The notes: generated by a model not told the origin, from the letters alone. 64,000 nucleotides of DNA from an uncultured Planctomycetaceae bacterium (GCA_963758085.1 CAVWUB010000004.1:334259-398258); one strand, 5' to 3'. Positions 27,099-56,862 are shown, counted from the first letter of the stretch. Made by a program: numbers and translations.

Positions 27099-28365
27099 GT
27101 GATCGCCCCTTCTCGAGTCGATTCGCTTCCCGATTCTCAGCGGATTGTTATCACCGGCATCGGATTGACGTCTCCCAACGGCAACGATTGGCAATCCTTT
27201 CGCCAAGCGCTGTTAGAGAAACGCAGTGGCGTTAGGCCATACGAAATTCGCTACGTCGGCGAGACGCTGGCCGGCGTCTGCGATTTCGACGCGCTGCGAT
27301 ACCAGACGAAGAAAGACCTCCGCCGCGGCACCCGTGCCGGCAGCGTCGGCATCTACTGCAGCCAACGAGGCGGTCAAGCGACTGCGGGCTCGATTGGGCA
27401 AACATCGATCGTTCGCGCGTCGGCATCTACATCGGCGTGACCGAGCACGGCAACGTCGAGACCGAGAACGAGATCTACGAGATCAAGGGCTACGACTACG
27501 ACACCAAGGTCTGGTCGCACCACCACAATCCGCGCACGGTGGCCAACAACCCGGCCGGCGAAATCACGCTGAACATGGGCATCACCGGGCCCGCACTACA
27601 CGATCGGCGCCGCCTGTGCCGCCGGCAATGCCGGGCTGATCCAGGGCGCGCAGATGCTGCGGCTGGGCGAATGCGACGTGGCGCTGGCCGGCGGCGTCTC
27701 GCGAAAGCATTCACACGTTCGGCATCTTCGCCAGCTTCAAGAGCCAAGGCGCGCTGGCCACGCACGAGCGATCCGGCCCAAGCCGTCGCGCCGTTCGACC
27801 GCGATCGCAACGGCATCGTCGTGGCCGAAGGCGGCTGCGTCTACGTGCTGGAACGGCTCAGCGACGCGAAGAACCGCGGCGCGAAGATCTACGGCGAGCT
27901 GGCCGGCTACGCGATGAACACCGACGCCACCGACTTCGTGCTGCCCAATCCCGAGCGGCAGGCGCAGTGCATCGCAGCTGGCGCTGCAGCGCGCCGGGCT
28001 GGAGCCGGAGGAGATCGACATCGTCAGCACCCACGCCACGGGCACCAACAGCGGCGACGTCCAGGAGTGCGATGCGCTGCGCGGGTGTTCGGCGATTGCA
28101 AGACGGTGAAGTTCAACAACACCAAGAGCTTCATCGGCCACGCGATGGGCGCCGCCGGAGCGCTGGAATTGGCCGGCAACCTTGCCGGCCTTCGACGACG
28201 GCGTCGTGCCACGCCACGATCAACGTCGACGACCTCGATCCCGAGTGCGCTCTGCCGGGATTAGTGACCGGTGAGGCTCAGGAAGTCCGCGGCGTCGACT
28301 ACATTCTGAACAACTCGTTCGGCATGCTGGGCATCAACTCGGTCGTGATCATCCGGCGCGTGTAA
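27099..28365 (+). pseudogene. Beta-ketoacyl-ACP synthase (FabF/KAS-II-like), multiply frameshifted
   Basis: KAS segments were followed through all three frames: VITGIGLTSPNGNDWQSF (f0), AANEAVKRL (f1), IDRSRVGIYIGVTEHGN...ITGP (f2), HYTIGAACAAGNAGLIQGAQMLRLGECDVALAGGVS (f0), ESIHTFGIFASFKSQGALATHE (f1), FDRDRNGIVVAEGGCVYVLERLSDAKNRGAKIYGELAGY (f2), LALQRAGLEPEEIDIVSTHATGTNSGDVQECDALRG (f0), VFGDCKTVKFNNTKSFIGHAMGAAGALE (f2), TINVDDLDPECALPGL...NNSFGMLGINSVVIIRRV (f1). That gives about 8 frameshifts. Confidence 0.75.
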
Positions 28366-28441
28366 TTTCCAGTTATCAGGCAGCCCCACCAGCGGTACGG
28401 ACTGCATCTGCGATTGCCTTTATCCATTCACCACAGAGAAC

Positions 28442-28690
28442 CTACCGACCATGAGTCCCGCCGAAATCCGCGATGAGATCCTCGACATTCTTGGAGACAT
28501 CGCTCCGGACGAGGACCTCGACGAATGGTCGACGACAAGAACTTCCGCGAGCAGATGGAACTCGACAGCATGGACTTCCTCGACATCGTGATGGAACTCC
28601 GCAAGCGCCATCGCATGCAGATTCCGGAGGAGGATTACGGCCAATTGGCCAGCATGCAGACCACGGTGAGCTACCTCGAACCGAAAGATG
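28442..28690 (+). pseudogene. Acyl carrier protein, frameshifted once
   Basis: MSPAEIRDEILDILGDIAPDEDLDEW in one frame continues as LVDDKNFREQMELDSMDFLDIVMELRKRH in another. This is an ACP helix II region (DSM/DSL-like). Confidence 0.55.
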
Positions 28691-28722
28691 CGCAGACATC
28701 GTCAAGGCATAGCCTGCGCCAT

Positions 28723-30119
28723 GTACGACACGATCATCATCGGCGCCGGCATGTCCGGGTTGGCCGCGGGCATCCGCCTGGCATACTACGACCAGCGGGT
28801 CTGCATCCTCGAGCGGCACTACACGATCGGCGGGCTCAACTCGTTCTACCGCCTGCGCGGCCGCGATTACGACGTCGGCCTGCACGCGGTCACGAACTTC
28901 ACGCCCAAGGGGACCGCAGACGGGCCGCTGGCCCGGTTGCTGCGTCAGCTGCGTTTCAACTGGGAAGACTTCGCCCTGGCCGCAGATCGGCTCGTCGATT
29001 CGCTTTCCCGGCGTCAGTCTCGACTTCGGCAACGACATCGAACTGCTGCAAAGCGAGATCGCGCGCGAGTTTCCCGACTGGTCGAGGCAACTTGCGAAAC
29101 TGCTGCGATTCAGCTCGTCGACTACGACGATCTGGCGGGAGATGATCCGAACTTCAACCGCAGCGCCCGCACGGTGCTGGAGCAGTTGATCCCGATCCGC
29201 TGCTCGTCGAAATGCTGCTCTGCCCGCTGATGTGGTACGGCAATGCCCGCGAGGACGACATGGACTGCGGCCAGTTCTGCATCATGTTCCGCAGCATTTA
29301 TCTCGAAGGGTTCGGCCGTCCGTTCACCGGCGTGCGACTGATCCTCAAGACTCTGGTGCGCAAGTTCCGCGGCCTGGGCGGCGAACTGAAACTCCGCAGC
29401 GGTGTGTCGCGGATCCACGTCGAGGACGGCCGCGCCGTCGGCGTGGTGCTCGACGATGGGACGGAGCTCGCCGGCCGCCGCATCCTGTCCTCAGCCGGCA
29501 CGGTCGAAACGCTGCGGATGTGCGACGACATCACCGAAGTCGACGTGGCCAAAGCGGGCCAGCTGAGCTTTATCGAGTCGATCTCGATCCTCGATGTTCA
29601 ACCCAAGGACATCGGATACGACCGCACGATCGTGTTTTACAACGACAGCGAGACCTTCCATTGGCGGCGGCCCGAACAAGGACTGTGCGATATGCGCACC
29701 GGCGTCATCTGCTCGCCGAACAACTATCGTTATGATGCCGCCGACGGAATGCTGCCCGACGGTGTCATCCGGATCACCACGCTGGCCAACTACGACCGCT
29801 GGTGTGCGTTGCCCGAACCGATGTACCGGGCCGAGAAGGTCGCTCGGTACGACCGCGGTCGCACTCGGCGGTGCGGTTCATGCCCGACTTCCGCCGGCAC
29901 GTCATCGACACCGACATGTTCACGCCCACGACGATCCGCCGCTTCACCTGGCACGACAACGGCGCGGTGTACGGCGCGCCGGACAAACGGCTCGACGGCA
30001 CGACGCATCTGAAGAACCTGTTCCTCTGCGGCACCGACCAGGGCTTCGTCGGCATCATCGGCGCCATTATCAGCGGCATCAGCATGGCCAATCGCCACTG
30101 CCTCGTCTCAGCCGACTGA
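28723..30119 (+). pseudogene. FAD-dependent oxidoreductase (phytoene-desaturase/amine-oxidase-like), multiply frameshifted
   Basis: The N-terminus MYDTIIIGAGMSGLAAGIRLA (Rossmann GxGxxG) and C-terminus LFLCGTDQGFVGIIGAIISGISMA (FAD-binding) are in different frames. The body is split over at least 3 frames with at least 5 shifts (ORFs 28688-29230, 29212-30012, 29802-30119). Confidence 0.65.
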
Positions 30120-30261
30120 GCTGCTCGGTCAGATTGCGCGCCCTGAAGCGGATCAAAATCGGCCCGTGGTCATACCCGCATCGCGGGCGACGTCGGGTCC
30201 AGTTGTGGACTAGAATCTTTCGGGGGCCACGACCCTACCCGCTCGCTCGTCCACTCCTTCA

Positions 30262-30930
30262 GTGCAATCCGCAATCATGTGGCAGTCGCTACAACCGCTC
30301 ATCGAATCGTTGTTCGTCGGTCCGGTCTGGCCGGCTTCGGTGCTGTTGTTGTTGGTCTTGGGCTACCTGTTGTTGTCGCTGGGTACATCTTGGGATGTGG
30401 ACGGTCCGGACCTGGAGGTCGATGCCCACGTTTGGCAAAGCCTTGGAACTGCCACGCTGCGCTGGCTGCACTTGGATTCGGTTCCAGTGGTCATCTGGGG
30501 CGGTCTGTTTGCCTGCATCAACTGGTTGCTGGCCTACATCCTGTGGAATGCTTTTGATTCGGCGCGGCACGACCCGACGTGGCTTGTATCAGCGCTGCTG
30601 GCGACGCGCAACGCGGTGATCGCGGCGGTGATCACGAGGTTCGTCACCGCGCCGCTGGCGCCCTACCTGGGCGGCGGAGCGGCCTACGGTGTAGAGACGC
30701 TGATCGGCAGGTCGTGCGTCGTCTCCTCGGGTGAAGCGACGCCGACCTTTGGACAAGCGAAGTACGACACCGGCGGCGCTCCGCTGCTGCTCAACATCCG
30801 CACCGATGGACCTCATCTCGCCAAAGGCACACCGGTCCGCATCGTCTCCTTCGATCCCACCAAACGCATCTACTCTGTCACCCTCGATCTTGATACTGAT
30901 ATCAATACCTTTTCCGGGACCCAAACATGA
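30262..30930 (+). CDS. NfeD/YqiJ-like membrane protein (TM region plus a C-terminal soluble beta domain)
   Basis: Multiple TM helices are followed by a C-terminal ~70-aa soluble domain (GTPVRIVSFDPTKRIYSVTLDLD). It overlaps the flotillin start by 4 nt (ATGA), a pairing typical of nfeD-flotillin (yqiJ-yqiK, yuaF-floT) operons. Confidence 0.55.
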   Translation: MQSAIMWQSLQPLIESLFVGPVWPASVLLLLVLGYLLLSLGTSWDVDGPDLEVDAHVWQSLGTATLRWLHLDSVPVVIWGGLFACINWLLAYILWNAFDSARHDPTWLVSALLATRNAVIAAVITRFVTAPLAPYLGGGAAYGVETLIGRSCVVSSGEATPTFGQAKYDTGGAPLLLNIRTDGPHLAKGTPVRIVSFDPTKRIYSVTLDLDTDINTFSGTQT

Positions 30931-33074
30931 TCATCCATCCGCTGCTTGCTCTTTCTGATGCGGCGATGTACGGCCTGCTGACCGTCGGGCTGCTGGTGTT
31001 CTTCGCGATGTTGGCGGCGTTTTACGTCAGCATCTTTTTCGTCAAAGTTGGACCGGATGAGGCGATCGTCAAGTCGGGAGCGGGCGGGATCAAGGTCGTC
31101 ACCGATGGTGGTTTGCTGCGGATGCCGCTCGTCCAGCACATCGAGTACATGGACCTGACGCTCAAGAGCTTTGAGATCGCGCGTCAAGGCGCTGAAGGCT
31201 TGATCTGCAAGGACAATATTCGCGCCGATATTAAAGTCGCGTTCTTCATCCGTGTCGACAAAACGGCGGAAGAGATCAAGGAAGTCGCTCAGTCGATCGG
31301 CCCGAAGCGGTGCAGTGAGATCGAGACGCTCCGCGAACTGTTTGATGCCAAGTTCAGCGAAGCGCTCAAGACGGTCGGCAAACAGTTCGACTTCGTCGAC
31401 CTGTATGACAAACGCGATAAATTCAAGGACGAAATCCTCAAGGTCATCGGCACCGATCTCAATGGTTACCGACTCGACGATGCCGCGATCGACTACCTCG
31501 AGCAGACGCCGCTGTCGCTGCTCAACCCCAACAACATCCTCGACGCCGAAGGGATCAAAAAGATCACCGAGCTGACGTCGACCGAAAAGATCAAGGAAAA
31601 CCAGTTCACTCGTGACCGCGAAAAGACGCTTAAGAAACAAGACGTCGAAGCGGAAGAAACGATCCTCGAACTCGAGCGGCAACGCGTCCAGGCGGTCGAG
31701 AAGCAACAACGCGAAATCGCAGAACTCCGAGCTCGTGAAAAGGCATCAGCCGATAAGGTCCGCGAACAACAGCGACTAGAATCCGAACGTGTGCGGATTC
31801 AGACCGAGGAAGAAATCGGCATCGCCGAGGAAAACAAGTCCCGGCAAATCCTCGTCGCCCAGCGCAACAAGGAACGCACCGACGGGGTCGAACTGGAACG
31901 CGTCCAGCGTGATCGCGAACTGGAAGCGGTCGAACGCTTGCGGTTGGTCGGCGTCGCCGATGTCGAAAAGCAAAAGGCGATCGAAGTTGAAAACCGCAAC
32001 ATCCAAGAAGTGATTCGCGAGCGAGTGGCGGTCGAGCGGGCTGTGGTGGAAGAGAAAGAGCGAATCAAAGACACCGAAGAAAAGGCCGGGGCCGAACGAC
32101 TCAAGTCGGTCCAGATCACCGCCGCTCAAATGCGTGCCGAAGAAGATCTCATCCGCCAAACCAAAGCCGCTCAGGCCGAAAAAGAAGCTGCTCTAATGTT
32201 GGCCGATAAGATTCGCGTCGAGGCCGAGGCGATGAAGGACGCGGCCGAGCGCGAGACCGCTGCGACTAAGATGCTGGCCGAAGCCGAATCAGCCAAACAG
32301 GCAGCGGTCGGACTGGCCGAAGCGCGGGTTCAGGAAGCCAAAGCCGATTCGCTGCAGAAGGAAGGTATTGCTCAGGCCACCGTGCTGGAACGCAAAGCCG
32401 TTGCGGAAGCTAAGGGTATCGAAGCCAAGGCGGAGGCCCTTCAGAAGCAAGGCTTAGCTGAAGCGGCCGTGGCGCTGGAAAAGTACCACAGCGAAGCGAC
32501 CGGCATCACCGAAAAGGCCGAGGCGATGAAGCAACTCGACAGCGTCGGCAAGGAACACGAAGAGTTCAAGCTGCGACTGGAGAAAGAGCAGAACGTCGAG
32601 ATTGCGGCAATCAATGCCCAGAAGAATATCGCCGAAAGCCAAGCCGGCGTCGTCGGCGAAGCGCTGCGAGCGGCCCGAATCGACATCGTCGGCGGCGATG
32701 GCCAGTTCTTCGAGCAGATCACCTCAGCCGTCAAGGGCGGCAAGGCGATCGACCGCTTCGTCTACAACAGCCGCGTGGCAACTGACATTAAGGATACCTT
32801 CTTTGATGGCAACCCCGGCTACTTCCGCGACAAGCTGCTGACGCTAGTGGCGCAGTTCAACCTCAGCACCGACGATATCAAGGACCTGTCGATTGCGGCC
32901 CTAATCGCGCAGTTGATGGGCGCGGCTAAGAGTGAGGACCTTCGCTCGCAGCTGACCAGTCTGCTCGGCATGGCGGGCTCGGCTGGAATCGCTGACCAAC
33001 GGGTCTCCAAACTGGTGTTGGATGCCCCCAAAGTCACACAGGTAACCAGCGTCAACGGCAATAGCAAGAAATAA
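30927..33074 (+). CDS. Flotillin-family protein (SPFH/band-7 domain plus long Ala/Glu-rich coiled coil), 715 aa
   Basis: An N-terminal TM, then SPFH-like VKVGPDEAIVKSGAGGIKVV...LTLKSFEIARQGAEGLICKDNIRADIKVAFFIRV, then about 450 aa of EA-repeat coiled coil as in FloT/YqiK. Confidence 0.75.
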   Translation: MIIHPLLALSDAAMYGLLTVGLLVFFAMLAAFYVSIFFVKVGPDEAIVKSGAGGIKVVTDGGLLRMPLVQHIEYMDLTLKSFEIARQGAEGLICKDNIRADIKVAFFIRVDKTAEEIKEVAQSIGPKRCSEIETLRELFDAKFSEALKTVGKQFDFVDLYDKRDKFKDEILKVIGTDLNGYRLDDAAIDYLEQTPLSLLNPNNILDAEGIKKITELTSTEKIKENQFTRDREKTLKKQDVEAEETILELERQRVQAVEKQQREIAELRAREKASADKVREQQRLESERVRIQTEEEIGIAEENKSRQILVAQRNKERTDGVELERVQRDRELEAVERLRLVGVADVEKQKAIEVENRNIQEVIRERVAVERAVVEEKERIKDTEEKAGAERLKSVQITAAQMRAEEDLIRQTKAAQAEKEAALMLADKIRVEAEAMKDAAERETAATKMLAEAESAKQAAVGLAEARVQEAKADSLQKEGIAQATVLERKAVAEAKGIEAKAEALQKQGLAEAAVALEKYHSEATGITEKAEAMKQLDSVGKEHEEFKLRLEKEQNVEIAAINAQKNIAESQAGVVGEALRAARIDIVGGDGQFFEQITSAVKGGKAIDRFVYNSRVATDIKDTFFDGNPGYFRDKLLTLVAQFNLSTDDIKDLSIAALIAQLMGAAKSEDLRSQLTSLLGMAGSAGIADQRVSKLVLDAPKVTQVTSVNGNSKK

Positions 33075-33118
33075 ACTGTGATTCGGAATCTGCTCCACCG
33101 CCACTTAGACGTCCGCAC

Positions 33119-36100
33119 ATGACGACCAACGACGACCTCTCCGGCGGTACTTATGAGATCTTGCGCAACCGCCTTCGGGATGGAGCGACCGTGCTGCGCA
33201 ACCGCCTCGGCGGGCTTAACCAGGATCGTGCAGCGGTCTTCGGCAACATCCAAACCACACTGCTTGCCACCGAACGGGTGACGACGGAACACAATTGTGT
33301 ACCGCGAGATCTGGTGGCGGTCGGCGACCGCTTCTTGTTTGGATATAACGTCCAGTTCGGCCTAAAAACGGAGACGCATCTGCAGGACGTTTTCGCCTGC
33401 TATCGATTCGACGGTTTAGAGTTTCATCCTGAACCGCTTGAGAGTTTGCTGCGCGACGAGCGTTTCGCCACCGATTTTTCTGACCTCTACCGCTACTACA
33501 AACACACCGCGTTCACCCGTTTCTTTTCCAACGGTCCATTCGTCTACTTCGTGTTCCAGGTAGGACGCACTGCCGCGGATATCAAAGCGTTCAAGTGGCG
33601 GTCAGCCGGTGGCGAGTTTCAGTACGTCGATAACCGCAGCGAGCACGAGGTTGTCCACCCACCGCAACATGAGTTCGTGTGGAAACGCACCACGCGCGAC
33701 CAACATCACTACGGACGCCATCCGCACATCTCGATCGAAGACCGCATGTTTGTGGAAACCGTCGGCGGTGACTTGACTATCAAAGTTGAGAACAACACCG
33801 AATCCGGTGAAGGGATTTACAGCGAGCCGGTCGATCATGCCGACCAAACACTCGACGACGCCGAAATCTACTACGCATCGCTCGGCAACCTCGTACTGCT
33901 CAAGATCCGCCCGTATCAGGAGCAGCGGTTCCGTTTCCTCGTCTTCAATGCCAAGCTGAACACCGTGATCCGTATGGATGAGATCGAGCATGCATGCGTG
34001 ATGCTGCCCGACGATCAAGGGATCATCTTTCCCGGTGGATACTACTTACAGACGGGAGAGTATAAACGGTTCGATCACGGCCTCAATCAGATGCTCTATG
34101 AGCGAACACTGCCAGCATCCAATGGTGAGGATTTCCTGTATCTGTTCTATCAGCGCGACAGTGGAACTTACATCCAGCTGCGCTACAACCTGATCCGGCA
34201 GAGCGTCGACACGCCGATGATCACCAGCGGCCAGACGTTCTTTGGCGACGGCAAGATGGTCGCCTTCAAAGCGAATGAGCAGCCGCAGAAGCATCACGCC
34301 GTACAGATTTGGCAAACCCCGTTCACCGGTCCCGACTTTGTTCCCGACAGCAATTCCGATTCATTGTTATTCAAGATCGGCAATAAAGAACTCGTGCGCT
34401 GCATGGCTGAGTGCAGTGAGATCTTGCACCTGATCGACAAGGAAGACAACTACGAAGGTTTGTATGTCGATCTTGTCAAACGCAGCGGCGATGTGCTGGA
34501 TAGCTACTTCTGGATCGACAAGTCTGAGACACACAAACTCGATGAGCCGCTGCGCACGATCCGCGAGGCAGCTTCCGCCGCAGTCGAAGAGTATGAGAAG
34601 GTGGTTCGCTTGCGACGCGATACGAGCAGTCGCACCGAAACCGTCAAGCATTCCATCGAAGCGCTGATTAAGCAGCTCGACCTGGGCCGGTTTGAGGCCG
34701 TCGATGATTTTGTCAATGCACTGGCGAAACTGCGCGAGCAGCGCGGAGCTGCAATCGCCCTTCGCGAGCTGCGGTACGTCGATCTGCAAGTGGTCGAATC
34801 GCTCGAAAAGCTGACGGCCGAGCGTTCCGAACGGCTCAGTCGGCGGTGCGTCGATTTCCTTGCCACGCCGCATGCGCTCGATCCCTACCGTCAGCGTGTC
34901 GACAAGGCAGCGACCGCAGTTGCCGGGCTGGAGCGAGTGACGCAGGCGAAAGAGTTGCAAAAAACGATCGATGAAGCGGCAGGGCAACTGGAACTGCTGA
35001 CCGAGACGGTCAGCAACCTGCAGATCGAAGATACAACCAAGCGAACGGAGATCATCGACGGCATCAGCGAGGTTTTTGCCTCGCTCAATCGGGTTCGCAG
35101 CGCTCTGCGCTCGCGGCTATCGGAACTGATGGGCAGCGAGGGAAGAGCCGAGTTTGCATCGCAACTGAAGCTGCTGCAGCAGACCGTCAACGGCTACCTC
35201 GACGTCTGTGACGCGCCCGATAAATGCGACAGCTATCTGACCCGGCTGATGATCCAGTTGGAGGAACTCGAGGGCCGGTTCGCTGAGTACGACGAGTTTG
35301 TCAGCGAGCTGACTCAGCGCCGCGAGGACATCTACACCGCATTTGAGTCGCGCAAGGTTCAGCTCGTCGAGGCGCGCAATCGCCGCGCTGAGACACTCGC
35401 GTCATCGGCCAATCGGATCTTGCAGGGAATCCAGACCAAAGCCTCGTCGTTGAAGGGCGTCGACGAAATCCTCGCCTATTTCGCTTCCGATCTGATGGTC
35501 GACAAGGCGCGAGGCATCATTGAACAACTGCGCAAGCTCGACGATACGGTCCGCGCGGAAGAGATCGAAAGCCGGCTCAAAACGGTTCGCGAAGACACTG
35601 TCCGGCAGCTCAAGGATCGCCAGGAGCTGTTCGAGGACGGCGGCGACACAATCCGTCTGGGACGTCACCGGTTTGGGGTCAACACGCAGCCGATCGATCT
35701 GACGAGTGTTGTCCGGGATGGCGTGTTGAGTCTGCACGTGACGGGCACGCAGTTCTTTGAGCCGCTGGACGATCCCGACCTGCTCGCCGCTCAAGATTTA
35801 TGGAATCAGGAGCTGATCAGCGAGAATGCAGAGGTTTATCGCGGCGAGTTCCTGGCGACCGATCTGTTTGAAACCTGGAAACGGTCCGCCGATCATCCCG
35901 GCGCGGCCATCCCCACGCTCGCTTGGGTCCAGCAACAGATCGCGGGTCGATTTTCTGAGGGCTTTGCCAAGGGCGTGCATGACCACGACGCGGCGCTGAT
36001 CCTCGAAGCGCTGGTGCGTCTGGATCAGCAAATCGGCTTGCTCCGGCACCGCCCCAGCGCCCGTGCTGCGGCGACGCTCTGGTGGCAGCGTTTGATCTCG

Positions 36101-38377
36101 AAGGCGAATCGCAATGCTCTGACCAGCTGGATCGGCGGCTTCGCGCATCTGGCCAGAGCCTTCCCCGGCGCCCGCCCGGCCGCTGAGTTTCGCCAGCGGA
36201 TCGTCGACTTGGTAGGTGACCCTCAGCAGGATCATGGCAGCTCGCTGGCCGAGATTTTTCCGGACGTCACGGCAACCATGGTCGCCGATTATTTATTTGA
36301 TGTGCTGACCGCGGCGGCGGCGACGCCTGTCTTTAGCTCCACCGCGGCGCGGTGGTATGAGTCATTTTGCGAGTCGATGCCACAGGAGGACCGCAAGGCG
36401 TGGGTCACGGACGTGCTCGGCGCCAACAACGCTCGCCCGCTGGAGTCGTTCGTGCTGGCCCGCAACTGGGCCGATGCATTCTTGACCAGCCAGGCGCCTG
36501 CCGCCGACGTCATCGACCCGCCGTTGGATTATCGCGACGAATTGGCGCTGTTGATTCAGCAGGATGGGGTGGGCAATTCGCAAATAGTGACCGCACACGT
36601 TGCCCAGCAGGTCGAGGGACTGGTAGGCGATCATCGCCGCATTGCCGGCGGTAAGCTGGTGGTCCATTATCACGAGCTGCTGGAGCGATTGCGCCGGTAT
36701 CACGCTCGGGTCGTGCCGCGGTTCAAACGCTTGGGCACCGCGAAGCATCAGGTATTAGAACGCTCACGTGCGGAACTGCGATTGGATGAGTTCCGCCCCA
36801 AGGTGCTGACCAGCTTTGTCCGCAACCGGCTGATCGACGAGGTTTACTTGCCGATGATCGGCGACAACCTCGCCAAGCAACTCGGAGCGGCCGGTGAAAA
36901 CAAACGCACCGATCGCTCGGGCATGTTGCTGTTGATCAGCCCGCCGGGCTATGGCAAAACGACGCTGATGGAATACGTTGCCAATCGGCTGGGCGTCGTA
37001 TTCATGAAAATCAACGGCCCGACCATCGGCCATGGAGTCACGTCGCTCGATCCCGATGAAGCGCCCAACGCGGCGGCGCGGGAAGAGGTGGCGCGAATCA
37101 ACTTAGCCCTGGAAATGGGCGACAATGTGATGCTGTACCTCGACGACATCCAGCACACACACCCGGAGTTGCTGCAAAAGTTCATTTCGCTCTGCGACAG
37201 CACCCGCCGGATCGAAGGTGTGCGAAACGGACGCACCAAAACTTATGATCTGCGAGGCCGTCGGTTTGCCGTCGTCATGGCTGGAAATCCTTATACCGAA
37301 AGCGGCGAGCGATTTCAGATCCCCGACATGCTTGCCAACCGTGCCGACGTTTATAACCTCGGCGAAATCATCGGCGATGCCTCCGACGCATTCGAGATGA
37401 GCTACTTGGAAAATTGTTTGACCAGCAATGAGCATTTGGCGCCACTGGCGGCCGGCAATCCCGAAGACGCACGGCAACTGATCCGCGCCGCTGGGCGTGA
37501 CTCGATTGAGGGTGCCGAGCTGAAGGGGAATTACTCGGCGGACCAAGTGCGGTCGATGTTCGAGGTGCTGCGAAAACTTATCCGCGTGCGCGATGTCGTG
37601 CTCAAGGTCAACCGCGCCTATATCCGGTCCGCTGCGCAGGCGGATGCGTATCGCACCGAGCCGCCGTTCAAGCTGCAGGGCAGCTACCGCAACATGAACC
37701 GGATGGCGCAGAAGGTCGCACCGGTCATGAATGATGCGGAATTAGCAACACTCATCTATGCGAGCTACGAGCAGGATGCACAGACACTCACCACGGACAA
37801 CGAAGCCAATCTACTGAAGCTCAAAGAACTGCTCGGGACGCTCACGGTTCAGGAGCAGGAACGCTGGGATGCGATCAAGTACGCGTTTGTTGAAAACGTG
37901 CGAATGTCGGGAATCAGCACGGAAGACCAAGCCGGCCAAGTGCTGCGTCAACTCGCGTCGATGCGCGATGGGCTGGAGTCGATCCGTCAGGTGATTGCGC
38001 GAGCGGTTACCATTCACGGCGAAGGCGCCGAGCAGCGGATGGACGAGCGGTTCGATGCGCTGCGCAGCGGACTGGTCACCGCCACCGATCAGCTCGCCGT
38101 CGTGCTGCAGTCGACCGCCGGGCAGTTGCAGAAGATCAGCGAGTTCCAAGCCGCGAACCCACCGGAGCAGAATGTCACGGTCCAGCACAAGGTCCCACGG
38201 GTGATGCTCGATTTGATCCGTGGCCAGTTCCATCTGATGCAAGAATGGCTGCGCCCGATCCTCGAAGGCTCGACGGTGCAGGGGCGTGAACTGGAAAGCC
38301 TGCGCGTCCGCATCGACAGCATGCTCGATACCTACGTGCGGCTGCAATCAGAACTCGAATCGGCCGTCGACAAATAG
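33119..38377 (+). CDS. Giant (1752 aa) uncharacterised protein with a C-proximal AAA+ ATPase module
   Basis: A single uninterrupted ORF. Walker A LLISPPGYGKTTLMEY (about aa 1275), Walker B VMLYLDDIQH (about aa 1340) and a sensor/arginine region VVMAGNPYTESGERFQIPDMLANRADVY (about aa 1390). The N-terminal ~1200 aa have no motif I recognise, and the central region is coiled-coil-like. It is spaced 45 nt from flotillin on the same strand. Confidence 0.6.
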   Translation: MTTNDDLSGGTYEILRNRLRDGATVLRNRLGGLNQDRAAVFGNIQTTLLATERVTTEHNCVPRDLVAVGDRFLFGYNVQFGLKTETHLQDVFACYRFDGLEFHPEPLESLLRDERFATDFSDLYRYYKHTAFTRFFSNGPFVYFVFQVGRTAADIKAFKWRSAGGEFQYVDNRSEHEVVHPPQHEFVWKRTTRDQHHYGRHPHISIEDRMFVETVGGDLTIKVENNTESGEGIYSEPVDHADQTLDDAEIYYASLGNLVLLKIRPYQEQRFRFLVFNAKLNTVIRMDEIEHACVMLPDDQGIIFPGGYYLQTGEYKRFDHGLNQMLYERTLPASNGEDFLYLFYQRDSGTYIQLRYNLIRQSVDTPMITSGQTFFGDGKMVAFKANEQPQKHHAVQIWQTPFTGPDFVPDSNSDSLLFKIGNKELVRCMAECSEILHLIDKEDNYEGLYVDLVKRSGDVLDSYFWIDKSETHKLDEPLRTIREAASAAVEEYEKVVRLRRDTSSRTETVKHSIEALIKQLDLGRFEAVDDFVNALAKLREQRGAAIALRELRYVDLQVVESLEKLTAERSERLSRRCVDFLATPHALDPYRQRVDKAATAVAGLERVTQAKELQKTIDEAAGQLELLTETVSNLQIEDTTKRTEIIDGISEVFASLNRVRSALRSRLSELMGSEGRAEFASQLKLLQQTVNGYLDVCDAPDKCDSYLTRLMIQLEELEGRFAEYDEFVSELTQRREDIYTAFESRKVQLVEARNRRAETLASSANRILQGIQTKASSLKGVDEILAYFASDLMVDKARGIIEQLRKLDDTVRAEEIESRLKTVREDTVRQLKDRQELFEDGGDTIRLGRHRFGVNTQPIDLTSVVRDGVLSLHVTGTQFFEPLDDPDLLAAQDLWNQELISENAEVYRGEFLATDLFETWKRSADHPGAAIPTLAWVQQQIAGRFSEGFAKGVHDHDAALILEALVRLDQQIGLLRHRPSARAAATLWWQRLISKANRNALTSWIGGFAHLARAFPGARPAAEFRQRIVDLVGDPQQDHGSSLAEIFPDVTATMVADYLFDVLTAAAATPVFSSTAARWYESFCESMPQEDRKAWVTDVLGANNARPLESFVLARNWADAFLTSQAPAADVIDPPLDYRDELALLIQQDGVGNSQIVTAHVAQQVEGLVGDHRRIAGGKLVVHYHELLERLRRYHARVVPRFKRLGTAKHQVLERSRAELRLDEFRPKVLTSFVRNRLIDEVYLPMIGDNLAKQLGAAGENKRTDRSGMLLLISPPGYGKTTLMEYVANRLGVVFMKINGPTIGHGVTSLDPDEAPNAAAREEVARINLALEMGDNVMLYLDDIQHTHPELLQKFISLCDSTRRIEGVRNGRTKTYDLRGRRFAVVMAGNPYTESGERFQIPDMLANRADVYNLGEIIGDASDAFEMSYLENCLTSNEHLAPLAAGNPEDARQLIRAAGRDSIEGAELKGNYSADQVRSMFEVLRKLIRVRDVVLKVNRAYIRSAAQADAYRTEPPFKLQGSYRNMNRMAQKVAPVMNDAELATLIYASYEQDAQTLTTDNEANLLKLKELLGTLTVQEQERWDAIKYAFVENVRMSGISTEDQAGQVLRQLASMRDGLESIRQVIARAVTIHGEGAEQRMDERFDALRSGLVTATDQLAVVLQSTAGQLQKISEFQAANPPEQNVTVQHKVPRVMLDLIRGQFHLMQEWLRPILEGSTVQGRELESLRVRIDSMLDTYVRLQSELESAVDK

Positions 38378-38423
38378 CAGTCGTTTAACCGTGCTCGCTG
38401 AAAACGATTTGCCGGGTGCGGGA

Positions 38424-39470
38424 ATGTCGACTAATCTCGTGCCAACGGAGCGCGGTTGGCGGATCCGGCTTGGTGGCAGCGACTCAAGGCTTTCAGTTTT
38501 GGCAATCCAGTTTCAGTGCCATGAGTGTGGCAAAACGATCAGCGTGAAAGACGAACTAGCCGGTAAGCGGGTGAAGTGCCCGTGCGGCGCTGTCGTCACT
38601 GCAACCGCTGCGGCTCCCACGGCGACTGCCGGCGCCGCACGTCCTGCCCGGCCGGCGCCTGCGCGGCCGGTGCCCGCCCGACCGGTGGCTGCCCGACCCG
38701 CTGTTCAAACTTCTACCGCTGCCCGAGCGGGCACCGCACGCCCGGCACCGGGTCTACCGGCCAGCGGCAATCCGTACATCGCGGGCAGCAATGACCTCAG
38801 TTCGCTGTTTGATGAACTGACGGAATCGGATCTGCAGACCAAGCGTGAGCGGGATCAGCAGGCGGCGGACTCGCAGGCCGCGGTCAAAGATCCGCTGGCC
38901 GCCTACCGCCCCGATAAAGGCGGCAAAGCATCGCGTCCCGGCGGTGCCGGTCCGCGGCCGGTGGGGCTGACGATCCTGGCGGTCCTCAACTTTTTAATCG
39001 CGGCGCTCATGCTCACGCTCGGGGTGCTGTTCCTGGTTGGCACCCAAGCCTTCGGTGATGCCCTCGCAGAAGTGGAGTTCCTGCAAGAAGTCGCCACTGC
39101 CATTGCGGTGACGATACTCATCGCTGGCGGCTTTTGTGCAGCCACCGGCGCGGGGTTACTCAGCGGCCAGCCCTGGGGTTGGTGGCTCGGCACGACGGTC
39201 TATACATACAGTGCCTTCGACGGCATCTTCTCCATCATCTTCGCACTGCTCGAGGCCGCTCCGCCGGACACTGCATTTAAAAATGTTGGGAGGGTCCTGT
39301 TTGCGATCGGGGTCGTCTCCTACCTCTTTAATGAAGAACGTCGCGCGTATTACAGAATCCAAACCAAGCCCGCGATCGCCGCGGTGATCGTGATTGGCAC
39401 GATGGCAGTCCTAGCGTTCGCACTGCAATTGGGCCTGCACCTGATGGTCGAGGATGTGCCGGCCCAGTAG
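38424..39470 (+). CDS. Membrane protein with an N-terminal zinc ribbon, Pro/Ala-rich linker and a C-terminal 4-TM domain
   Basis: CHECGKTISVKDELAGKRVKCPCG (C-x2-C...C-x-C), then PAPARPVPARPVAARP repeats, then four hydrophobic helices. The start is set at the ATG at 38424 to avoid overlapping the upstream gene. Confidence 0.5.
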   Translation: MSTNLVPTERGWRIRLGGSDSRLSVLAIQFQCHECGKTISVKDELAGKRVKCPCGAVVTATAAAPTATAGAARPARPAPARPVPARPVAARPAVQTSTAARAGTARPAPGLPASGNPYIAGSNDLSSLFDELTESDLQTKRERDQQAADSQAAVKDPLAAYRPDKGGKASRPGGAGPRPVGLTILAVLNFLIAALMLTLGVLFLVGTQAFGDALAEVEFLQEVATAIAVTILIAGGFCAATGAGLLSGQPWGWWLGTTVYTYSAFDGIFSIIFALLEAAPPDTAFKNVGRVLFAIGVVSYLFNEERRAYYRIQTKPAIAAVIVIGTMAVLAFALQLGLHLMVEDVPAQ

Positions 39471-39516
39471 CCGCGGCATCGCTACTGCGGCGGTCGCCCT
39501 AGCCCGCTGCCCGTGC

Positions 39517-40629
39517 CTATTGCACAGCCGAAAAACGGTGCGTCGGCAGTGGCCGGCCGGGCCGGAAACTCTGTGTCTGAGTGACTTGGCAGCTCCCGCC
39601 CACCGACCGGCAAGCCTGCTCGACCGCCTGCTGCACCAGTTCTTGCAGCGTCTGCGGATCGATGGCCACGCGAGCGTTGACCACCACATCGGCCGCTGCG
39701 GTCTGGCACTGGGAGGCCAATGACAGTTCGGCTGGCGACAGGCTGCTGGTCAAGTTGGCGACCGCGGAAAAACCTTCCCACAGCCCGATCGCTTTCAGGT
39801 GAGCGGTTTCAGCGCCGGCATGGGCCAGCGACGCCTGCAGCGCCGCGACAATCCCCAGGATCAATTCGTCTAGCGCAAACGGCTCATTGGCCGTAGCCTT
39901 CAAACTCATATTGAGCCAGCCGAGTTCCGCTTCGCCCTCGGCGTAAATGTCGTAGTCGATTTCCAGCGTCCGCCGCCCGAAGTCGCCGCGCTGGTCGAGC
40001 ATTTCTAGCAACAGGTCGAACCCGGCCCCGGTACGCGCGCTGGTCCGCAGGATCGGCACTCCGGCGGCTTCGGTCGCCAATAGCCCCGCCAACTCATCGA
40101 GTTCCTCTGCCGTCAGCTCGTCGGCGCGATTGATGATCACGAAGTCGGCTTCTTCGAGCTGTTTTTTGAAGATGTACTGGGCCTTGGGCGAGAAACCGGC
40201 CCGCTGACCACCGGAAAGGATGCGTTTACCGTGATTTGGCTTGAGGATGACGCCATAAGGTGCCACGTCGAACTGCTCGCCCAACAATTGCACCAGCGGC
40301 TGGATCACGGTGGCGACCAAGTCGGTGCAACTACCGACCGGCTCGGCCAGAATCACGTCCGGCCGCCCATCGCGACCGAGCTCTTCAGCCCGCTGAGTCA
40401 GCTCATTGAAATTGCAGCAGAAACAAGAGCCCGCTACCTCGCCGACCTCAAAGCCCTGCGCCCGCAGCGTCTGCGTGTCGACCAGATCGGTCGCTTGATC
40501 GTTGGTCACGATCGCCACCCGCAGCCCACGGCTCTGATAAGTGCGAGCCAACCTGGCAATGGTGGTCGTCTTACCGGCGCCAAGGAAGCCGCCGAGCATG
40601 ATGAATCGAATCGGTGCCATGGGACGCAA
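39517..40629 (-). CDS. G3E-family P-loop GTPase (HypB/UreG/CobW-like), putative metallochaperone
   Basis: The N-terminal P-loop is GGFLGAGKTT. IVTNDQATDLVDTQTLRAQG and EPVGSCTDLVATV resemble the UreG/HypB Switch and ENVGNLVCP regions. A CFCC Cys cluster is present. There is a ~170-aa C-terminal extension of unknown function. Confidence 0.45.
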   Translation of the reverse strand: MRPMAPIRFIMLGGFLGAGKTTTIARLARTYQSRGLRVAIVTNDQATDLVDTQTLRAQGFEVGEVAGSCFCCNFNELTQRAEELGRDGRPDVILAEPVGSCTDLVATVIQPLVQLLGEQFDVAPYGVILKPNHGKRILSGGQRAGFSPKAQYIFKKQLEEADFVIINRADELTAEELDELAGLLATEAAGVPILRTSARTGAGFDLLLEMLDQRGDFGRRTLEIDYDIYAEGEAELGWLNMSLKATANEPFALDELILGIVAALQASLAHAGAETAHLKAIGLWEGFSAVANLTSSLSPAELSLASQCQTAAADVVVNARVAIDPQTLQELVQQAVEQACRSVGGSCQVTQTQSFRPGRPLPTHRFSAVQ

Positions 40630-40740
40630 GACCTTCTATTTCAGGTGCATTCGGGATCGCTGCGGCGATAGGCGGCAGGGAGCAAGAGGAATGAGGCGTT
40701 CACGATAGCTCAGAGTGAGACGGTAGGCGAGGAGCGGGTG

Positions 40741-40775
40741 GCGGGAGAACGGAGGACGGTGGACGGTGGACGAGG
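40741..40775. repeat. GGACGGTGGACGGTGGACG heptamer repeat (same unit as at 8536-8560)
   Basis: Read directly: ggaggacggtggacggtggacgagg, at the 3' end of the YihY-family gene. Confidence 0.8.
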
Positions 40776-40776
40776 A

Positions 40777-42318
40777 TTATCCGGCGGCCGCGATGGCGTC
40801 ACTGGCGGCTTCAGGTTCCAGCGGCACTGGCTGATCGCAGACGAGGTCGGCGAGCGTTTTATCGCCGGCGGCGGCAAGCTGGGCGGCTTTGAGCGCATCG
40901 AGCGTCTGCCAAGCGGTGCCCGAGAGGCCGGAGGGCAATTCGTGAGCGATCTCCAACACATCGCGAATCTGAATCGACTCCGGCGGACATGCCAGCGTGT
41001 AACTCTCGTCAGCTTCATCCGAACAAGCCAACCGGGCGACCCAGCCGGCGGCTTCCAGCTTGCGAACCATCGAGTGCACGACGGTTGTTGGTAGCAGCAA
41101 CCGCTCGGACAGGTCCTGCTGGTCGGTCGCACTGCCGCGCATGAACGCCTGGCCGATCGTGACCAGAATCGGCAAGATCCAAATCGGGTCGCCGGTAGGA
41201 AGGTTGGCCAGTGGCGTTTGCAGCTTGGCGGGGTAACGTCCGCGGAGGGTCTGTAGGGTGTGGGTCAGCACCACGCCGAACAAGATGATCATCCACGTCA
41301 CGTAGATCCAGAACAGGAACAGTGGGATCAGTCCCAATGAGCCGTACAACGACGAATAGGGGAGTGCTTTGACCACGTAGAGCTGGAAACCGAGCTTGGC
41401 GACTTCCCACAGCGCCGCTCCAACGGCCGCGCCGATCGCTGCGGCGCGAAGCGAGACGTGGGTGTTGGGCATCAGCGCGTAGAGCAGGAACAGCAGCACC
41501 CAGCTAGCGAGGATCGACAGGCCCCGGGTCAGCACCGTCGCCGTGGTCGCGATCGGGACGACCCCCGAGAGGTACTCGATGAACTGCCCGGACAGATAGA
41601 GGCTGGCCGCCAGCAGGCCGCTGCCCAAGGTGATGATCGACCAATGGATCGCCAGCCGCAGGTGTAGAGGACGCTCCGTGGGCGCCTCAAAGATGATGTT
41701 GAACAGATATTCCACAGCGTTGGAGAGCGCCACGGCGGTGTAGATGAACAGCAGCAGACCAAAGATCCCCAGCGAGGCGAAATCGAGGCTGGCGACCTTG
41801 CCGGTCGCCTCCCGCAGCCCCCGGCGGATGCTCGCCTTCACTTCGTGGCTCTCATCGCTCAAGTCGGCGATCGGCTCAGCTAACGCCGTATCCAACACCG
41901 TATCCCCCGATTCGGGCTCGGCTGCCTCCAGATCGAGCCCATACGTCTCGGGCACTTCGGGGACGCCGAAAAATGAGTAGAGCTGGTTTTCCAGACTCGC
42001 CTGGACTTCCTCCACTCCGCCGACGACACGAAACATCACCAGGCTCAAGACCACGACCGGAATCAGCGAAAAGATCGTCCGATAGGTCAGCTCGGCGGCC
42101 ATGCCTTCGGCCCGTACCCGCGCCAATTCACGATAACAGTGAGCCGCAATCCGTCCCGCCTTGCGAACGCGGATCTGCAGCCGAGTCAGTTCGTCTTCGG
42201 GACGAGCAAAGAAGTCCTGCAGTCGTTCAATATGTTCACGCAGCATAGACGCCGAGCCGATGGGACTGGAAAATACGGACCGAGCCGGTGCCGACAGCAG
42301 CGAGTGGGGGGTCAACAC
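40777..42318 (-). CDS. YihY/BrkB-family inner-membrane protein with a C-terminal soluble (winged-helix-like) extension
   Basis: ELTYRTIFSLIPVVVLSLVMF and about 6 TM helices are typical of YihY/BrkB. A ~130-aa C-terminal hydrophilic domain follows. The start could be 42318 or the internal MLREH. Confidence 0.55.
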   Translation of the reverse strand: MLTPHSLLSAPARSVFSSPIGSASMLREHIERLQDFFARPEDELTRLQIRVRKAGRIAAHCYRELARVRAEGMAAELTYRTIFSLIPVVVLSLVMFRVVGGVEEVQASLENQLYSFFGVPEVPETYGLDLEAAEPESGDTVLDTALAEPIADLSDESHEVKASIRRGLREATGKVASLDFASLGIFGLLLFIYTAVALSNAVEYLFNIIFEAPTERPLHLRLAIHWSIITLGSGLLAASLYLSGQFIEYLSGVVPIATTATVLTRGLSILASWVLLFLLYALMPNTHVSLRAAAIGAAVGAALWEVAKLGFQLYVVKALPYSSLYGSLGLIPLFLFWIYVTWMIILFGVVLTHTLQTLRGRYPAKLQTPLANLPTGDPIWILPILVTIGQAFMRGSATDQQDLSERLLLPTTVVHSMVRKLEAAGWVARLACSDEADESYTLACPPESIQIRDVLEIAHELPSGLSGTAWQTLDALKAAQLAAAGDKTLADLVCDQPVPLEPEAASDAIAAAG

Positions 42319-49599: not shown

Positions 49600-50181
49600 A
49601 TGTCCCGCACCTTCGCCCTTTTGGTCACACTGTTGGTAAGTGCCGCGGTTCCAGCTGCGAATGCCGAAGAACCCAAATCGCCTGGCGTGGGTGATCCGGC
49701 GCCTACGTTTGAGGCGCAGGATGACCAAGGGAAAACCTGGAAGTCGTCCGAACATTTCGGCAAGAAGATCGTCGTGATTTACTTTTATCCTGCGGACATG
49801 ACCGGTGGGTGTACCGCTCAAGCGTGCGCGTTCCGCGATGACATGGGCGAGTTGGCTGACAAGGAAGTTGAAGTCGTTGGAGTCAGTGGTGACTCAGTGG
49901 AAAACCACCAGTTGTTTAAGAAAGCGCACGGCTTGAACTTTACCCTGCTAGCCGACGTCGACGGTAAAGTCGCCGATGCGTTCGGGGTGCCGAAAACGGT
50001 CGGCGAGAAGACCGTCAAGGCGGTCATTGACGGAGTGACTCACGATCTCACCCGCAACGTCACCACCCAGCGTTGGACCTTTATCGTCGACCGTGATGGC
50101 AAAATCGCCTATAAGGATCCGAGCGTGAACGCCCGTCAGGACAGCCAAAAGGTCTTGGCCGCCCTGGATAAACTGCGCTAA
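49600..50181 (+). CDS. bcp: Secreted peroxiredoxin, Bcp/PrxQ type
   Basis: A signal peptide, and FYPADMTGGCTAQACAFRDD closely matches the Bcp active site FYPKAMTPGCTVQACGLRD. Confidence 0.8.
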   Translation: MSRTFALLVTLLVSAAVPAANAEEPKSPGVGDPAPTFEAQDDQGKTWKSSEHFGKKIVVIYFYPADMTGGCTAQACAFRDDMGELADKEVEVVGVSGDSVENHQLFKKAHGLNFTLLADVDGKVADAFGVPKTVGEKTVKAVIDGVTHDLTRNVTTQRWTFIVDRDGKIAYKDPSVNARQDSQKVLAALDKLR

Positions 50182-53591: not shown

Positions 53592-53593
53592 AG

Positions 53594-56359: not shown

Positions 56360-56369
56360 AGCTAGACTC

Positions 56370-56771: not shown

Positions 56772-56862
56772 GAGCCTATCGGAAACAACGTGCATTTTGG
56801 CAGGCGGTGCGTTATCCTGATCCTCCGACTGAGTCCGGTGATATCAACCAAAAGGTGTTGCG

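Follow-up and report, generated by a model that had tools for sequence, protein, structure and literature searches.

The closest described counterpart of the locus analysed here is the PSP-associated CesT/Tir-PspA-YqiJ/YuaF-flotillin-AAA+ operon class of Ravi et al. 2024 (mSystems 9:e00847-23, PMC11237479), with ANH61663.1 of Dokdonia donghaensis as the example row. Its description there assigns no Pfam family name or AAA+ clade and includes neither linkage statistics nor experiments. A single sentence of that paper notes the wide occurrence of abbreviated operons that lack PspA, and the authors suggest that these work with PspA encoded elsewhere. The yqiJ-yqiK genes of E. coli and yuaF-floT of B. 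subtilis form SPFH2-type NfeD-flotillin operons (Hinderhofer et al. 2009, PMC2636767), and SPFH scaffolds with a membrane AAA+ machine are represented by HflK/C-FtsH and prohibitin/m-AAA protease (cited in PMC1468410).

The window (the whole stretch of DNA that was analysed, 64 kb) contains a three-gene module that is a new member of this known, experimentally uncharacterised class, in the "abbreviated" (PspA-less) form of the flotillin/AAA+ operons of Ravi et al. 2024. As in yqiJ-yqiK and yuaF-floT, an NfeD-like gene lies immediately upstream of the flotillin gene and is translationally coupled to it, its 3' end overlapping the flotillin gene by 4 nt. With two genes each, those operons lack an ATPase (sibD/ibsD follow yqiK), whereas an ATPase gene is present here, and the flotillin has 715 aa as against 553 aa in the known NfeD-flotillin operon.

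The gene cluster and its NfeD-flotillin pair

Four ORFs on the + strand were confirmed at 30262-39470, with spacings of -4, 44 and 46 nt:

30262-30930, + strand: gene 1, YqiJ/YuaF-type NfeD-like membrane protein, 222 aa
30927-33074, + strand: gene 2, YqiK-type flotillin (SPFH/band-7 family), 715 aa
33119-38377, + strand: gene 3, giant soluble DUF3686-family AAA+ ATPase, 1752 aa
38424-39470, + strand: gene 4, zinc-ribbon-like membrane protein, 348 aa (longest ORF start at 38286)

The tight same-strand packing described in the earlier note is there, including the 4-nt overlap, and its gaps of 45 and 47 nt were each off by one. Its four-gene system is reduced to genes 1-3, a real and tightly conserved unit with gene 4 outside it. 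The region 30262-38377 is a predicted three-gene operon encoding a YqiJ/NfeD-like 3TM protein, a YqiK-type flotillin and a giant DUF3686 AAA+ ATPase.

The gene 1 protein matched the Pfam families NfeD (E=3e-4) and YqiJ_N (E=6e-4), both under the gathering score. It is collinear with E. coli YqiJ (BLASTP E=0.002), and the family alignment agreed (hhalign probability 95.5, E=1.6e-8). Hydropathy predicts three TM segments (residues 13-46, 73-95 and 106-136), followed by a C-terminal NfeD-like beta domain; the ATG at 30277 may be the true start. Gene 2 resembles E. coli YqiK (BLASTP E=5e-45, 30% identity over 468 aa; hhalign probability 100, E=1e-40, covering the SPFH domain and coiled coil). The Pfam Band_7 search of the gene 2 protein gave no match and the NCBIfam FloT match was weak (E=5e-5), while PF01145 is present in homologues of 75-80% identity, which are annotated as flotillin, SPFH or YqiK. 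The protein runs from an N-terminal hydrophobic anchor (segment 6-43) through the SPFH domain and a long Glu/Ala-rich coiled coil to a flotillin C-terminal region. Homology to YqiJ and YqiK by both BLASTP and hhalign upholds the earlier assignment of genes 1 and 2 as an NfeD/YqiJ-flotillin pair.

Domains and clade of the giant ATPase

Residues 26-464 of gene 3 are Pfam DUF3686 (PF12458; E=1e-188, 627.9 bits against a gathering threshold of 25) and residues 585-668 are DUF7902 (PF25472; E=4e-27, 94.6 bits against a threshold of 26), with matches to Pfam AAA and AAA_5 as well and no protease domain in the Pfam search. The N-terminal ~1200 aa, called novel in the earlier note, thus contain two catalogued families, and the protein has more than 6500 homologues (731 clusters at 50% identity). 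We found no paper naming DUF3686 or PF12458; the module is known from comparative genomics. Hydropathy gave no TM segment in gene 3, pointing to a soluble protein. Two AlphaFold2 models (mean pLDDT 87 and 88) divide it as follows:

33257-34318, + strand: beta-propeller, residues ~47-400, the DUF3686 core, preceded by a long N-terminal helix at 11-41 (AlphaFold2 model, Foldseek)
34364-35629, + strand: all-helical coiled-coil/helical-bundle region of ~420 residues (~416-837), including DUF7902 at 585-668 (DSSP, Pfam)
35648-36793, + strand: small beta domain (~844-882), then a helical middle domain (~908-1225); both models agree
36827-37648, + strand: AAA+ module with a helical lid, residues ~1237-1510
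37649-38374, + strand: C-terminal helical extension with two long terminal helices, residues ~1511-1752 (model 2 DSSP)

The predicted propeller has ~26 strands in four-strand groups at pLDDT mostly >90, and its Foldseek matches in the PDB are six- and seven-bladed propellers (E ~1e-4, probability 1.0), namely CyRPA, paraoxonase, the prolyl-oligopeptidase propeller, WD40 and the clathrin terminal domain. In the coiled-coil region the long helices of the model span 475-522, 639-696 and 725-776 (DSSP). The small beta and middle domains are modelled at pLDDT mostly >85 and hold the family invariants G848, F852, G952, H954 and D957. The C-terminal extension bears the invariant EPPFKLQGSYRNMN motif, and its pLDDT falls below 75 beyond about residue 1600.

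Walker A (SPPGYGKTT, 1274-1282, with K1280) and Walker B (LYLDDIQH, 1339-1346, with D1342-D1343), both recognised earlier, are invariant across the family. The putative sensor-1 is N1390 and the putative arginine finger R1408. Invariance of the Walker motifs and conservation of the NR motif speak in favour of an active ATPase, and since Walker B reads DD, not DE, hydrolysis may be slow or regulatory. A beta-hairpin at 1364-1377 (model positions 525-530 and 533-538), assigned by its position, lies between the Walker B and sensor-1 strands, where the MoxR/AAA_5 (helix-2-insert) clade has its pre-sensor-1 hairpin. Residues ~1304-1318 after strand 2, the presumed helix-2 insert site, form a loop without strands in the model.

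The nearest structural neighbours of the AAA+ module are MoxR proteins (CbbQ, NorQ), dynein, midasin and McrB, with a TM-score normalised to the target of up to 0.58 against CbbQ/NorQ in Foldseek. Gene 3 has a single AAA+ module, against six per chain in dynein and midasin. MoxR-class ATPases are ~270-500 aa and usually work with a VWA partner. Compared with CbbQ, NorQ and RavA, gene 3 adds ~1230 N-terminal and ~240 C-terminal residues and has no VWA partner: no VWA family was found among six window neighbours (Pfam scan) or in the annotated loci of relatives. Two other assignments were tried and rejected. The marks of the Vps4/classical AAA clade (an MIT domain, a two-arginine second region of homology and a closest fold in Vps4/p97) were not found, and the NCBIfam RuvB equivalog models, with cut-offs of 282 and 299 bits, gave scores of 22.9 and 19.7.

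Linkage to flotillin and the PspA-associated form

In 66 of 73 assessable loci, drawn from at least 588 genomes, the gene directly upstream of the giant ATPase gene and in the same orientation encodes a flotillin; L015, L017, L023, L025, L027, L051 and L083 have no adjacent flotillin gene. Among loci whose upstream sequence reaches 3 kb or more the count is 59 of 62, and the plasmid collection adds 4 of 4 records (Pseudomonas pQBR103, Streptomyces, Deinococcus and Vibrio); at least eight phyla are represented in all. The median gap between the aligned ends of the two genes is ~220 nt, and in 50 loci an orthologue of gene 1 precedes the flotillin gene. The flotillin and the ATPase are each ~45-50% identical across phyla, and the genes flanking the module vary from locus to locus, which counts for the linkage. 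The refuting condition set in the earlier note, a giant ORF that is common without flotillin neighbours, does not hold: the ORF almost never lacks flotillin directly upstream.

A PspA_IM30 gene is added in 19 of ~80 loci (representative E=4e-42), a CesT_Tir_1 gene in 14 (E=2e-51) and a divergent HTH/S24-like regulator in 17. PspA is near only this minority of loci, and the link to stress rests on them. Flavobacterial loci with a DUF3686 gene reproduce the published gene string exactly, including the divergent HTH+protease regulator, and pQBR103 has PspA and yjf-type polyamine genes in one gene string with the module.

The operon class of Ravi et al. (PMC11237479) contradicts the view in the earlier note that no described system has such an architecture. 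The order of genes 1-3 is identical to the row published there, and gene 3 has the domain composition of the class, in which a beta-propeller and a coiled coil precede the AAA+ ATPase in one chain. We infer that the published ATPase belongs to the DUF3686 family because architecture and gene order are identical, the Dokdonia sequence itself not being the basis. The full form has a CesT/Tir-PspA dyad and a regulator, both absent from the window. HMMs of the flavobacterial PspA and CesT proteins found nothing among all ORFs of the window, which fits only the abbreviated form.

Proposed role and competing explanations

We propose, with moderate confidence, that the ATPase of this abbreviated-form operon is an ATP-driven remodeller of flotillin (possibly PspA) assemblies at the inner membrane face; of the roles suggested in the earlier note, a remodeller of flotillin scaffolds is still the best reading. 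On the cytoplasmic side of the inner membrane, the flotillin would oligomerise into SPFH scaffolds with the aid of its NfeD-like partner. The ATPase would assemble into a MoxR/dynein-like ring, probably a hexamer of ~1.2 MDa, and its propellers, borne on long helical arms, would dock onto the flotillin scaffold and maybe onto PspA polymers where these are present. Hydrolysis of ATP would then drive the assembly, reshaping or dismantling of membrane-bound scaffolds or their clients in envelope stress. The identities of the genes and their linkage are established by the comparisons above; ring formation, physical contact, the substrate and the stress link are what we infer here. As the ATPase has no TM segment and the flotillin has an N-terminal anchor, both would meet on the cytoplasmic side.

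The best precedent for this proposed division of labour is HflK/C-FtsH and prohibitin/m-AAA protease, where an SPFH scaffold and an AAA+ machine meet at the membrane. FtsH is a membrane-anchored protease of the classical AAA clade, whereas gene 3 is predicted to be soluble, protease-less and MoxR/dynein-like, in an operon with an SPFH gene. With Vps4/CdvC and ESCRT-III the resemblance may be one of function, as an ATPase works there on polymers bound to the membrane, and PspA, of the ESCRT-III superfamily, is co-operonic with the module in some phyla.

This analogy can be carried further: the ATPase could be a bacterial Vps4 counterpart acting on PspA/ESCRT-III polymers, which here would be encoded elsewhere in the genome, with flotillin as a membrane platform only. 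The presence of PspA in the gene string of 19 loci and of pQBR103 is consistent with that, as is the suggestion by Ravi et al. that abbreviated operons use PspA encoded elsewhere (PMC11237479). According to a 2025 review a Vps4-like ATPase appears to be absent in bacteria, so the role would be vacant, which we counted in its favour. We nevertheless regard this explanation as unlikely.

Rather unlikely, too, is a MoxR-type maturation chaperone which, as CbbQ, NorQ and RavA, would load a cofactor into a specific client membrane complex corralled by the flotillin microdomain, or switch that complex on, and would not remodel flotillin itself. CbbQ and NorQ are the closest solved folds, Pfam AAA_5 matches over nearly its whole length, and the motif GNPYTESGExFxIPDMLANRAD resembles the sensor-1/arginine-finger region of MoxR proteins. 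However, neither a VWA-domain partner nor a recurring client gene was found beside the module, the genes that follow the ATPase show no relation from one locus to the next, and MoxR proteins have nothing to match the large propeller and coiled-coil additions.

The module might also be an anti-phage or conflict system, for example one of membrane-based abortive infection triggered via the ATPase, which we judge very improbable. Some conflict systems include SPFH/NfeD genes and large NTPases, one copy of the module is on the megaplasmid pQBR103, and close to the rearrangement point relatives carry a recombinase and toxin-antitoxin genes. Against this, the only matches in PADLOC-DB v2 were two weak local ones, LmuB (E=1.4e-4, over a coiled-coil stretch) and IetA (E=4.6e-4, over a 31-residue P-loop stretch), with none for genes 1, 2 and 4; no match was found in 50,697 phage records, and the 13 matches in 72,556 plasmid records are mostly chromids or megaplasmids. 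The module occurs once per locus, is conserved at ~50% across phyla and here has housekeeping-type neighbours, all unlike fast-evolving defence islands. The defence module considered in the earlier note gains no support from these searches.

That gene 4 is an integral component of a four-gene system is hardly credible. Its protein has a CxxC...CxC zinc-ribbon-like motif (weak Pfam match, E=0.005) and several hydrophobic segments, and the gene follows the ATPase on the same strand after 46 nt. However, nucleotide synteny with a relative of 91% identity ends at 38385, eight bases beyond the ATPase stop codon, the downstream genes are unrelated in five relatives of 67-91% identity, and two downstream proteins of similar size showed no similarity when compared directly. 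Gene 4 was absent from all 83 loci by tblastn and has only 23 homologues. One of these, 65% identical (L090), adjoins CobW and BrkB-MarR genes, with no ATPase nearby; CobW and BrkB-MarR genes are also the downstream neighbours of gene 4 in the window. Linkage to genes 1-3 was found in none of the relatives examined. On comparative sequence grounds gene 4 is a chance neighbour, refuted as a conserved component.

That the ATPase acts in DNA repair and that its adjacency to flotillin is incidental is equally hard to credit: the NCBI/Pfam names "DNA repair ATPase" and "ATPase involved in DNA repair", weak Pfam RuvB_N matches and Foldseek matches to RuvB speak for it, and the "DNA repair ATPase" name rests on no characterised relative.

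Returning to a remodeller of flotillin assemblies, we tentatively suggest, as a possible but doubtful elaboration, that the DUF3686 protein could be the missing ATP-driven motor of membrane-scaffold dynamics in bacteria, a MoxR/dynein-type ring with six propeller-tipped coiled-coil arms that would grip flotillin cages, along with PspA/ESCRT-III polymers where these occur, and assemble them or strip them off the membrane. If true, the DUF3686 protein would be an independently evolved functional analogue of Vps4 or FtsH-HflK/C, and bacterial flotillins would gain their first dedicated enzymatic partner.

The module in the window and its linkage across genomes

The window (G+C ~60%) very probably carries a three-gene YqiJ/NfeD-like, flotillin and giant AAA+ ATPase module, whose closest relatives are Planctomycetota of the Pirellulaceae/Planctomycetaceae type. 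These genes and their neighbors are located as follows.

Features of the window
25884-26927, + strand: gene for a Ser/Thr protein kinase (Pkinase E=4e-53), ~3.3 kb ahead of the operon
30262-30930, + strand: gene 1, YqiJ/NfeD-like, 222 aa
30927-33074, + strand: gene 2, flotillin, 715 aa
33119-38377, + strand: gene 3, AAA+ ATPase, 1752 aa
38424-39470, + strand: gene 4, zinc-ribbon membrane protein, 348 aa from the first ATG (longest ORF from 38286)
39517-40629, - strand: CobW-type GTPase, downstream block
40777-42318, - strand: BrkB/YihY-MarR fusion, downstream block
38385-42318: separate block of gene 4, CobW and BrkB-MarR (6606-10545 in L090, a metagenome locus)

Genes 1 to 4 are spaced by a 4-nt overlap, 44 nt and 46 nt, and the true start of gene 1 may be the ATG at 30277. 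Promoter and terminator scans returned site numbers not above shuffled-sequence expectation, and an Rfam search of 26-41 kb gave no match.

Pfam Band_7 did not match gene 2 even at E≤10, the PDB sequence search was empty and the profile search returned only a weak coiled-coil match to QmcA, so gene 2 was identified by aligning it directly to E. coli YqiK. The BLASTP alignment (E=5e-45, 30% identity, 468 residues) spans the membrane anchor, SPFH domain and coiled coil, and the family profile of 17 sequences matched YqiK with an hhalign probability of 100. Homologues at 75-80% identity contain PF01145 and go by the names flotillin, SPFH or YqiK; judged by these comparisons, gene 2 is clearly a flotillin. 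Its C-terminus aligned locally to that of YqiK no better than shuffled sequences (score 46 vs 34.6 +/- 5.8). A tail specific to ATPase-linked flotillins was looked for and is not claimed; the E.FKL / IDIVGGDG block by eye resembles an ordinary flotillin C-terminus. Gene 1 has three membrane segments by hydropathy and sub-threshold Pfam matches to the NfeD C-terminal domain and YqiJ_N, and its family profile matched E. coli YqiJ (probability 95.5, E=1.6e-8).

When one genome per species was scanned, relatives of the ATPase turned up in at least 588 genomes; the 80 best loci were retrieved together with their flanks and searched by tblastn with the window proteins. In 66 of these 80 a same-strand flotillin gene lies upstream of the ATPase, and 7 of the 14 remaining loci start within the ATPase gene and were set aside as not assessable. 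The earlier note would have counted a giant protein widespread without flotillin against its reading, and the reading passes this check: flotillin was found upstream in 66 of the 73 assessable loci, and in 59 of the 62 whose upstream flank reaches 3 kb or more, leaving seven true exceptions (L015, L017, L023, L025, L027, L051 and L083). An NfeD/YqiJ-like gene stands upstream of the flotillin gene in 50 loci. The loci are from Planctomycetota, Bacteroidota, Verrucomicrobiota, Desulfobacterota and Clostridia; a tblastn search of a plasmid collection added records from Pseudomonas (pQBR103), Streptomyces, Deinococcus and Vibrio, with the flotillin gene directly upstream of the ATPase in all four fetched records. 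The linkage extends over ATPase-bearing lineages of at least eight phyla, with flotillin and ATPase each retaining about 45-50% identity across phyla while the flanking genes vary by locus. Together, the upstream position in 66/73 loci, the varying flanks and the cross-phylum conservation are strong evidence that flotillin and ATPase form a functional unit.

Some Bacteroidota (L019, L026, L028, L037, L041, L042, L070) have 1-4 small genes between flotillin and ATPase; judged from sequence, their putative products are lipoproteins, a transposase-like protein and a DUF559-like endonuclease. Inserts as long as 2.4 kb are tolerated between the two genes. The small genes are mutually unrelated and were dropped as candidate module parts.

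Gene 4 had been read as the last member of a four-gene system; the linkage of genes 1-3 stands, and the membership of gene 4 is rejected. It was found by tblastn in 0 of 83 loci, and in relatives of 67%, 76%, 79%, 89% and 91% identity the genes downstream of the ATPase are unrelated to it, including two similar-sized proteins that showed no similarity to gene 4 in direct comparison. Nucleotide similarity with the 91% relative covers 27277-38385, ending eight bases past the ATPase stop codon. Gene 4 homologues are rare (only 23 in a 5.8-billion-protein collection), and one of 65% identity in L090, from the metagenome of the 91% relative, adjoins CobW-type GTPase and BrkB-MarR genes, as gene 4 does in the window, with toxin-antitoxin genes (ParE/antitoxin) on the other side and no ATPase. 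Given the end of synteny at 38385 and this shared neighborhood, gene 4 is part of the downstream block, not of the module, and a rearrangement placed it beside the operon. A 688-aa serine recombinase is encoded ~2.3 kb downstream of the ATPase gene in the 91% relative (L088, 13581-15647), which suggests that mobile DNA inserts or rearranges at this breakpoint.

Upstream of the operon (27277-30116, + strand), ketoacyl-synthase, acyl-carrier-protein and FAD amine-oxidase genes match their intact L088 orthologues only as fragments in different reading frames (amine oxidase 2, 1, 3; acyl carrier protein 2, 1; ketoacyl synthase 2, 1, 3), implying several frameshifts. They could be pseudogenes or reflect local assembly indels; the 8.1-kb operon directly after them is intact. 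No link between the kinase gene and the module was seen in other loci. At 50000-58000, a stretch with large + strand ORFs (e.g., 50646-53591 and 53944-55470), G+C drops to 0.565-0.58 and AT skew to -0.19, which sets the stretch apart in composition from the remainder of the window.

Family, structure and active site of the giant ATPase

The N-terminal ~1200 aa had been called novel, which is contradicted by Pfam matches to DUF3686 (PF12458; residues 26-464, E=1e-188) and DUF7902 (residues 585-668). More than 6500 homologues of the ATPase were counted by shared words, and searching exhaustively by HMMER with the DUF3686 part gave 731 clusters at 50% identity; full-length family members have 1600-1900 aa. 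They are named 'DNA repair ATPase', 'AAA family ATPase' or 'MoxR-like ATPase' in their sources, and we found no paper naming the Pfam family.

Solved structures matched the AAA+ core and no other part of the protein. Two AlphaFold2 models built from an alignment of 66 sequences (residues 1-1150, mean pLDDT 87.0; residues 840-1752, mean pLDDT 88.4, pTM 0.76) predict the following layout, and no membrane segment was predicted.

Domain layout of the ATPase in the AlphaFold2 models
Residues 11-41: N-terminal helix
Residues 47-400: beta-rich domain
Residues 416-837: long helices, about 420 residues
Residues 844-882: small beta domain
Residues ~908-1225: helical domain
Residues ~1237-1510: AAA+ module
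After the AAA+ module: helical C-terminal extension

A modeled beta-hairpin (residues 1364-1377) between Walker B and sensor 1 places the predicted motor in the MoxR/dynein/midasin (AAA_5) group, not in the classical Vps4/p97 clade, and sequence matches to p97 and Rix7 were confined to the Walker A neighborhood. Both Walker strings reported earlier were found, and 20 diverse members share K1280, D1342-D1343, N1390 and R1408 without exception, suggesting an active enzyme. The Walker B (window 37142-37147) reads hhhhDD, not hhhhDE, with both aspartates invariant in the same 20 members, which is unusual for an active AAA+ ATPase.

The PspA-containing long form

In 19 loci, mostly from Flavobacteriia and other Bacteroidota, the module is part of a longer gene string: a divergent HTH + S24-like regulator, CesT_Tir_1 (PF22550, E=2e-51), PspA/IM30 (PF04012, E=4e-42), YqiJ-like, flotillin and ATPase. 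The regulator combines an XRE-type HTH with a weak LexA-like (S24) peptidase domain. It occurs with the long form in 17 loci, ~2-4 kb upstream of the flotillin gene in L046, L055, L058, L071, L082 and other flavobacterial loci, and hints at control via self-cleavage under stress. The window lacks PspA and CesT genes throughout its 64 kb, so its module is the abbreviated form, of which it is a typical planctomycete copy. Linkage of the ATPase to flotillin is near-obligate and to PspA facultative. That PspA is the real substrate of the ATPase is unlikely.

On the megaplasmid pQBR103 of Pseudomonas fluorescens SBW25 (NC_009444.1, 85112-97641), a single + strand string runs from PspA, rhomboid protease, DUF2491, DUF350, DUF1190 and glutathionylspermidine-synthase-like genes to the YqiJ-like gene, SPFH protein and DUF3686 ATPase, uniting an E. 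coli yjf-type PspA/polyamine cluster with the flotillin-ATPase module in a host amenable to genetics.

The architecture, taken in the earlier note to be undescribed, had already been published by Ravi et al. 2024 (PMC11237479; preprint 2020), with identical gene order in a supplementary row for Dokdonia ANH61663.1. The published AAA+ operon is probably the DUF3686 module, based on the architecture and gene order of the flavobacterial loci fetched here and not on the Dokdonia protein. The two-gene yqiJ-yqiK/yuaF-floT operon has been on record since at least 2009 (PMC2636767), and knocking out a yqiK-like gene in Shewanella produced pleiotropic iron and oxidative-stress phenotypes (PMC1468410). 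The prior literature on the module amounts to one paragraph; the assignment of the ATPase to its Pfam family and to a MoxR/dynein-like class, the linkage statistics over at least eight phyla and the exclusion of gene 4 are new here.

A candidate motor for membrane scaffolds

The role of bacterial flotillins is still debated, and we know of no enzyme acting on them. According to a 2025 review (PMC7619361), bacteria appear to lack a Vps4-like ATPase for their ESCRT-III (PspA/Vipp1). Starting from the gene identities, domain layout, AAA+ class and linkage to flotillin and PspA established here, we propose that the ATPase would assemble as a ring whose propellers, carried by long helical arms, would dock on the flotillin scaffold at the cytoplasmic face of the membrane, and that under envelope stress ATP hydrolysis would reshape this scaffold, polymers of PspA or clients enclosed within. 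Taken as one statement, the module identity and this full mechanism stand evenly balanced between right and wrong. SPFH proteins are likewise paired with AAA+ motors in HflK/C-FtsH and in prohibitin with the m-AAA protease, but those motors are unrelated to that of DUF3686.

That the ATPase is instead a MoxR-like chaperone in the maturation of a client complex is quite unlikely, as neither a VWA partner nor a recurrent client gene accompanies it in the neighborhoods compared. The defense role offered in the earlier note is very improbable and was rejected: the PADLOC search was negative, there were 0 phage matches, plasmid matches are rare and conservation is high. Action in DNA repair, as the name has it, is scarcely credible and was likewise rejected, with RuvB models scoring 20-23 bits against cut-offs near 290; names such as 'DNA repair ATPase' in the databases probably mislead and deserve correction.

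The window copy alone contributes little, and the interest lies in the family as a candidate for the motor of flotillin and ESCRT-III-like scaffolds in bacteria. With flotillin coupled to the giant ATPase in about nine-tenths of assessable ATPase genomes, across at least eight phyla, and PspA alongside in some, the module offers a concrete candidate, amenable to testing, for the ATP-dependent control of membrane scaffolds.
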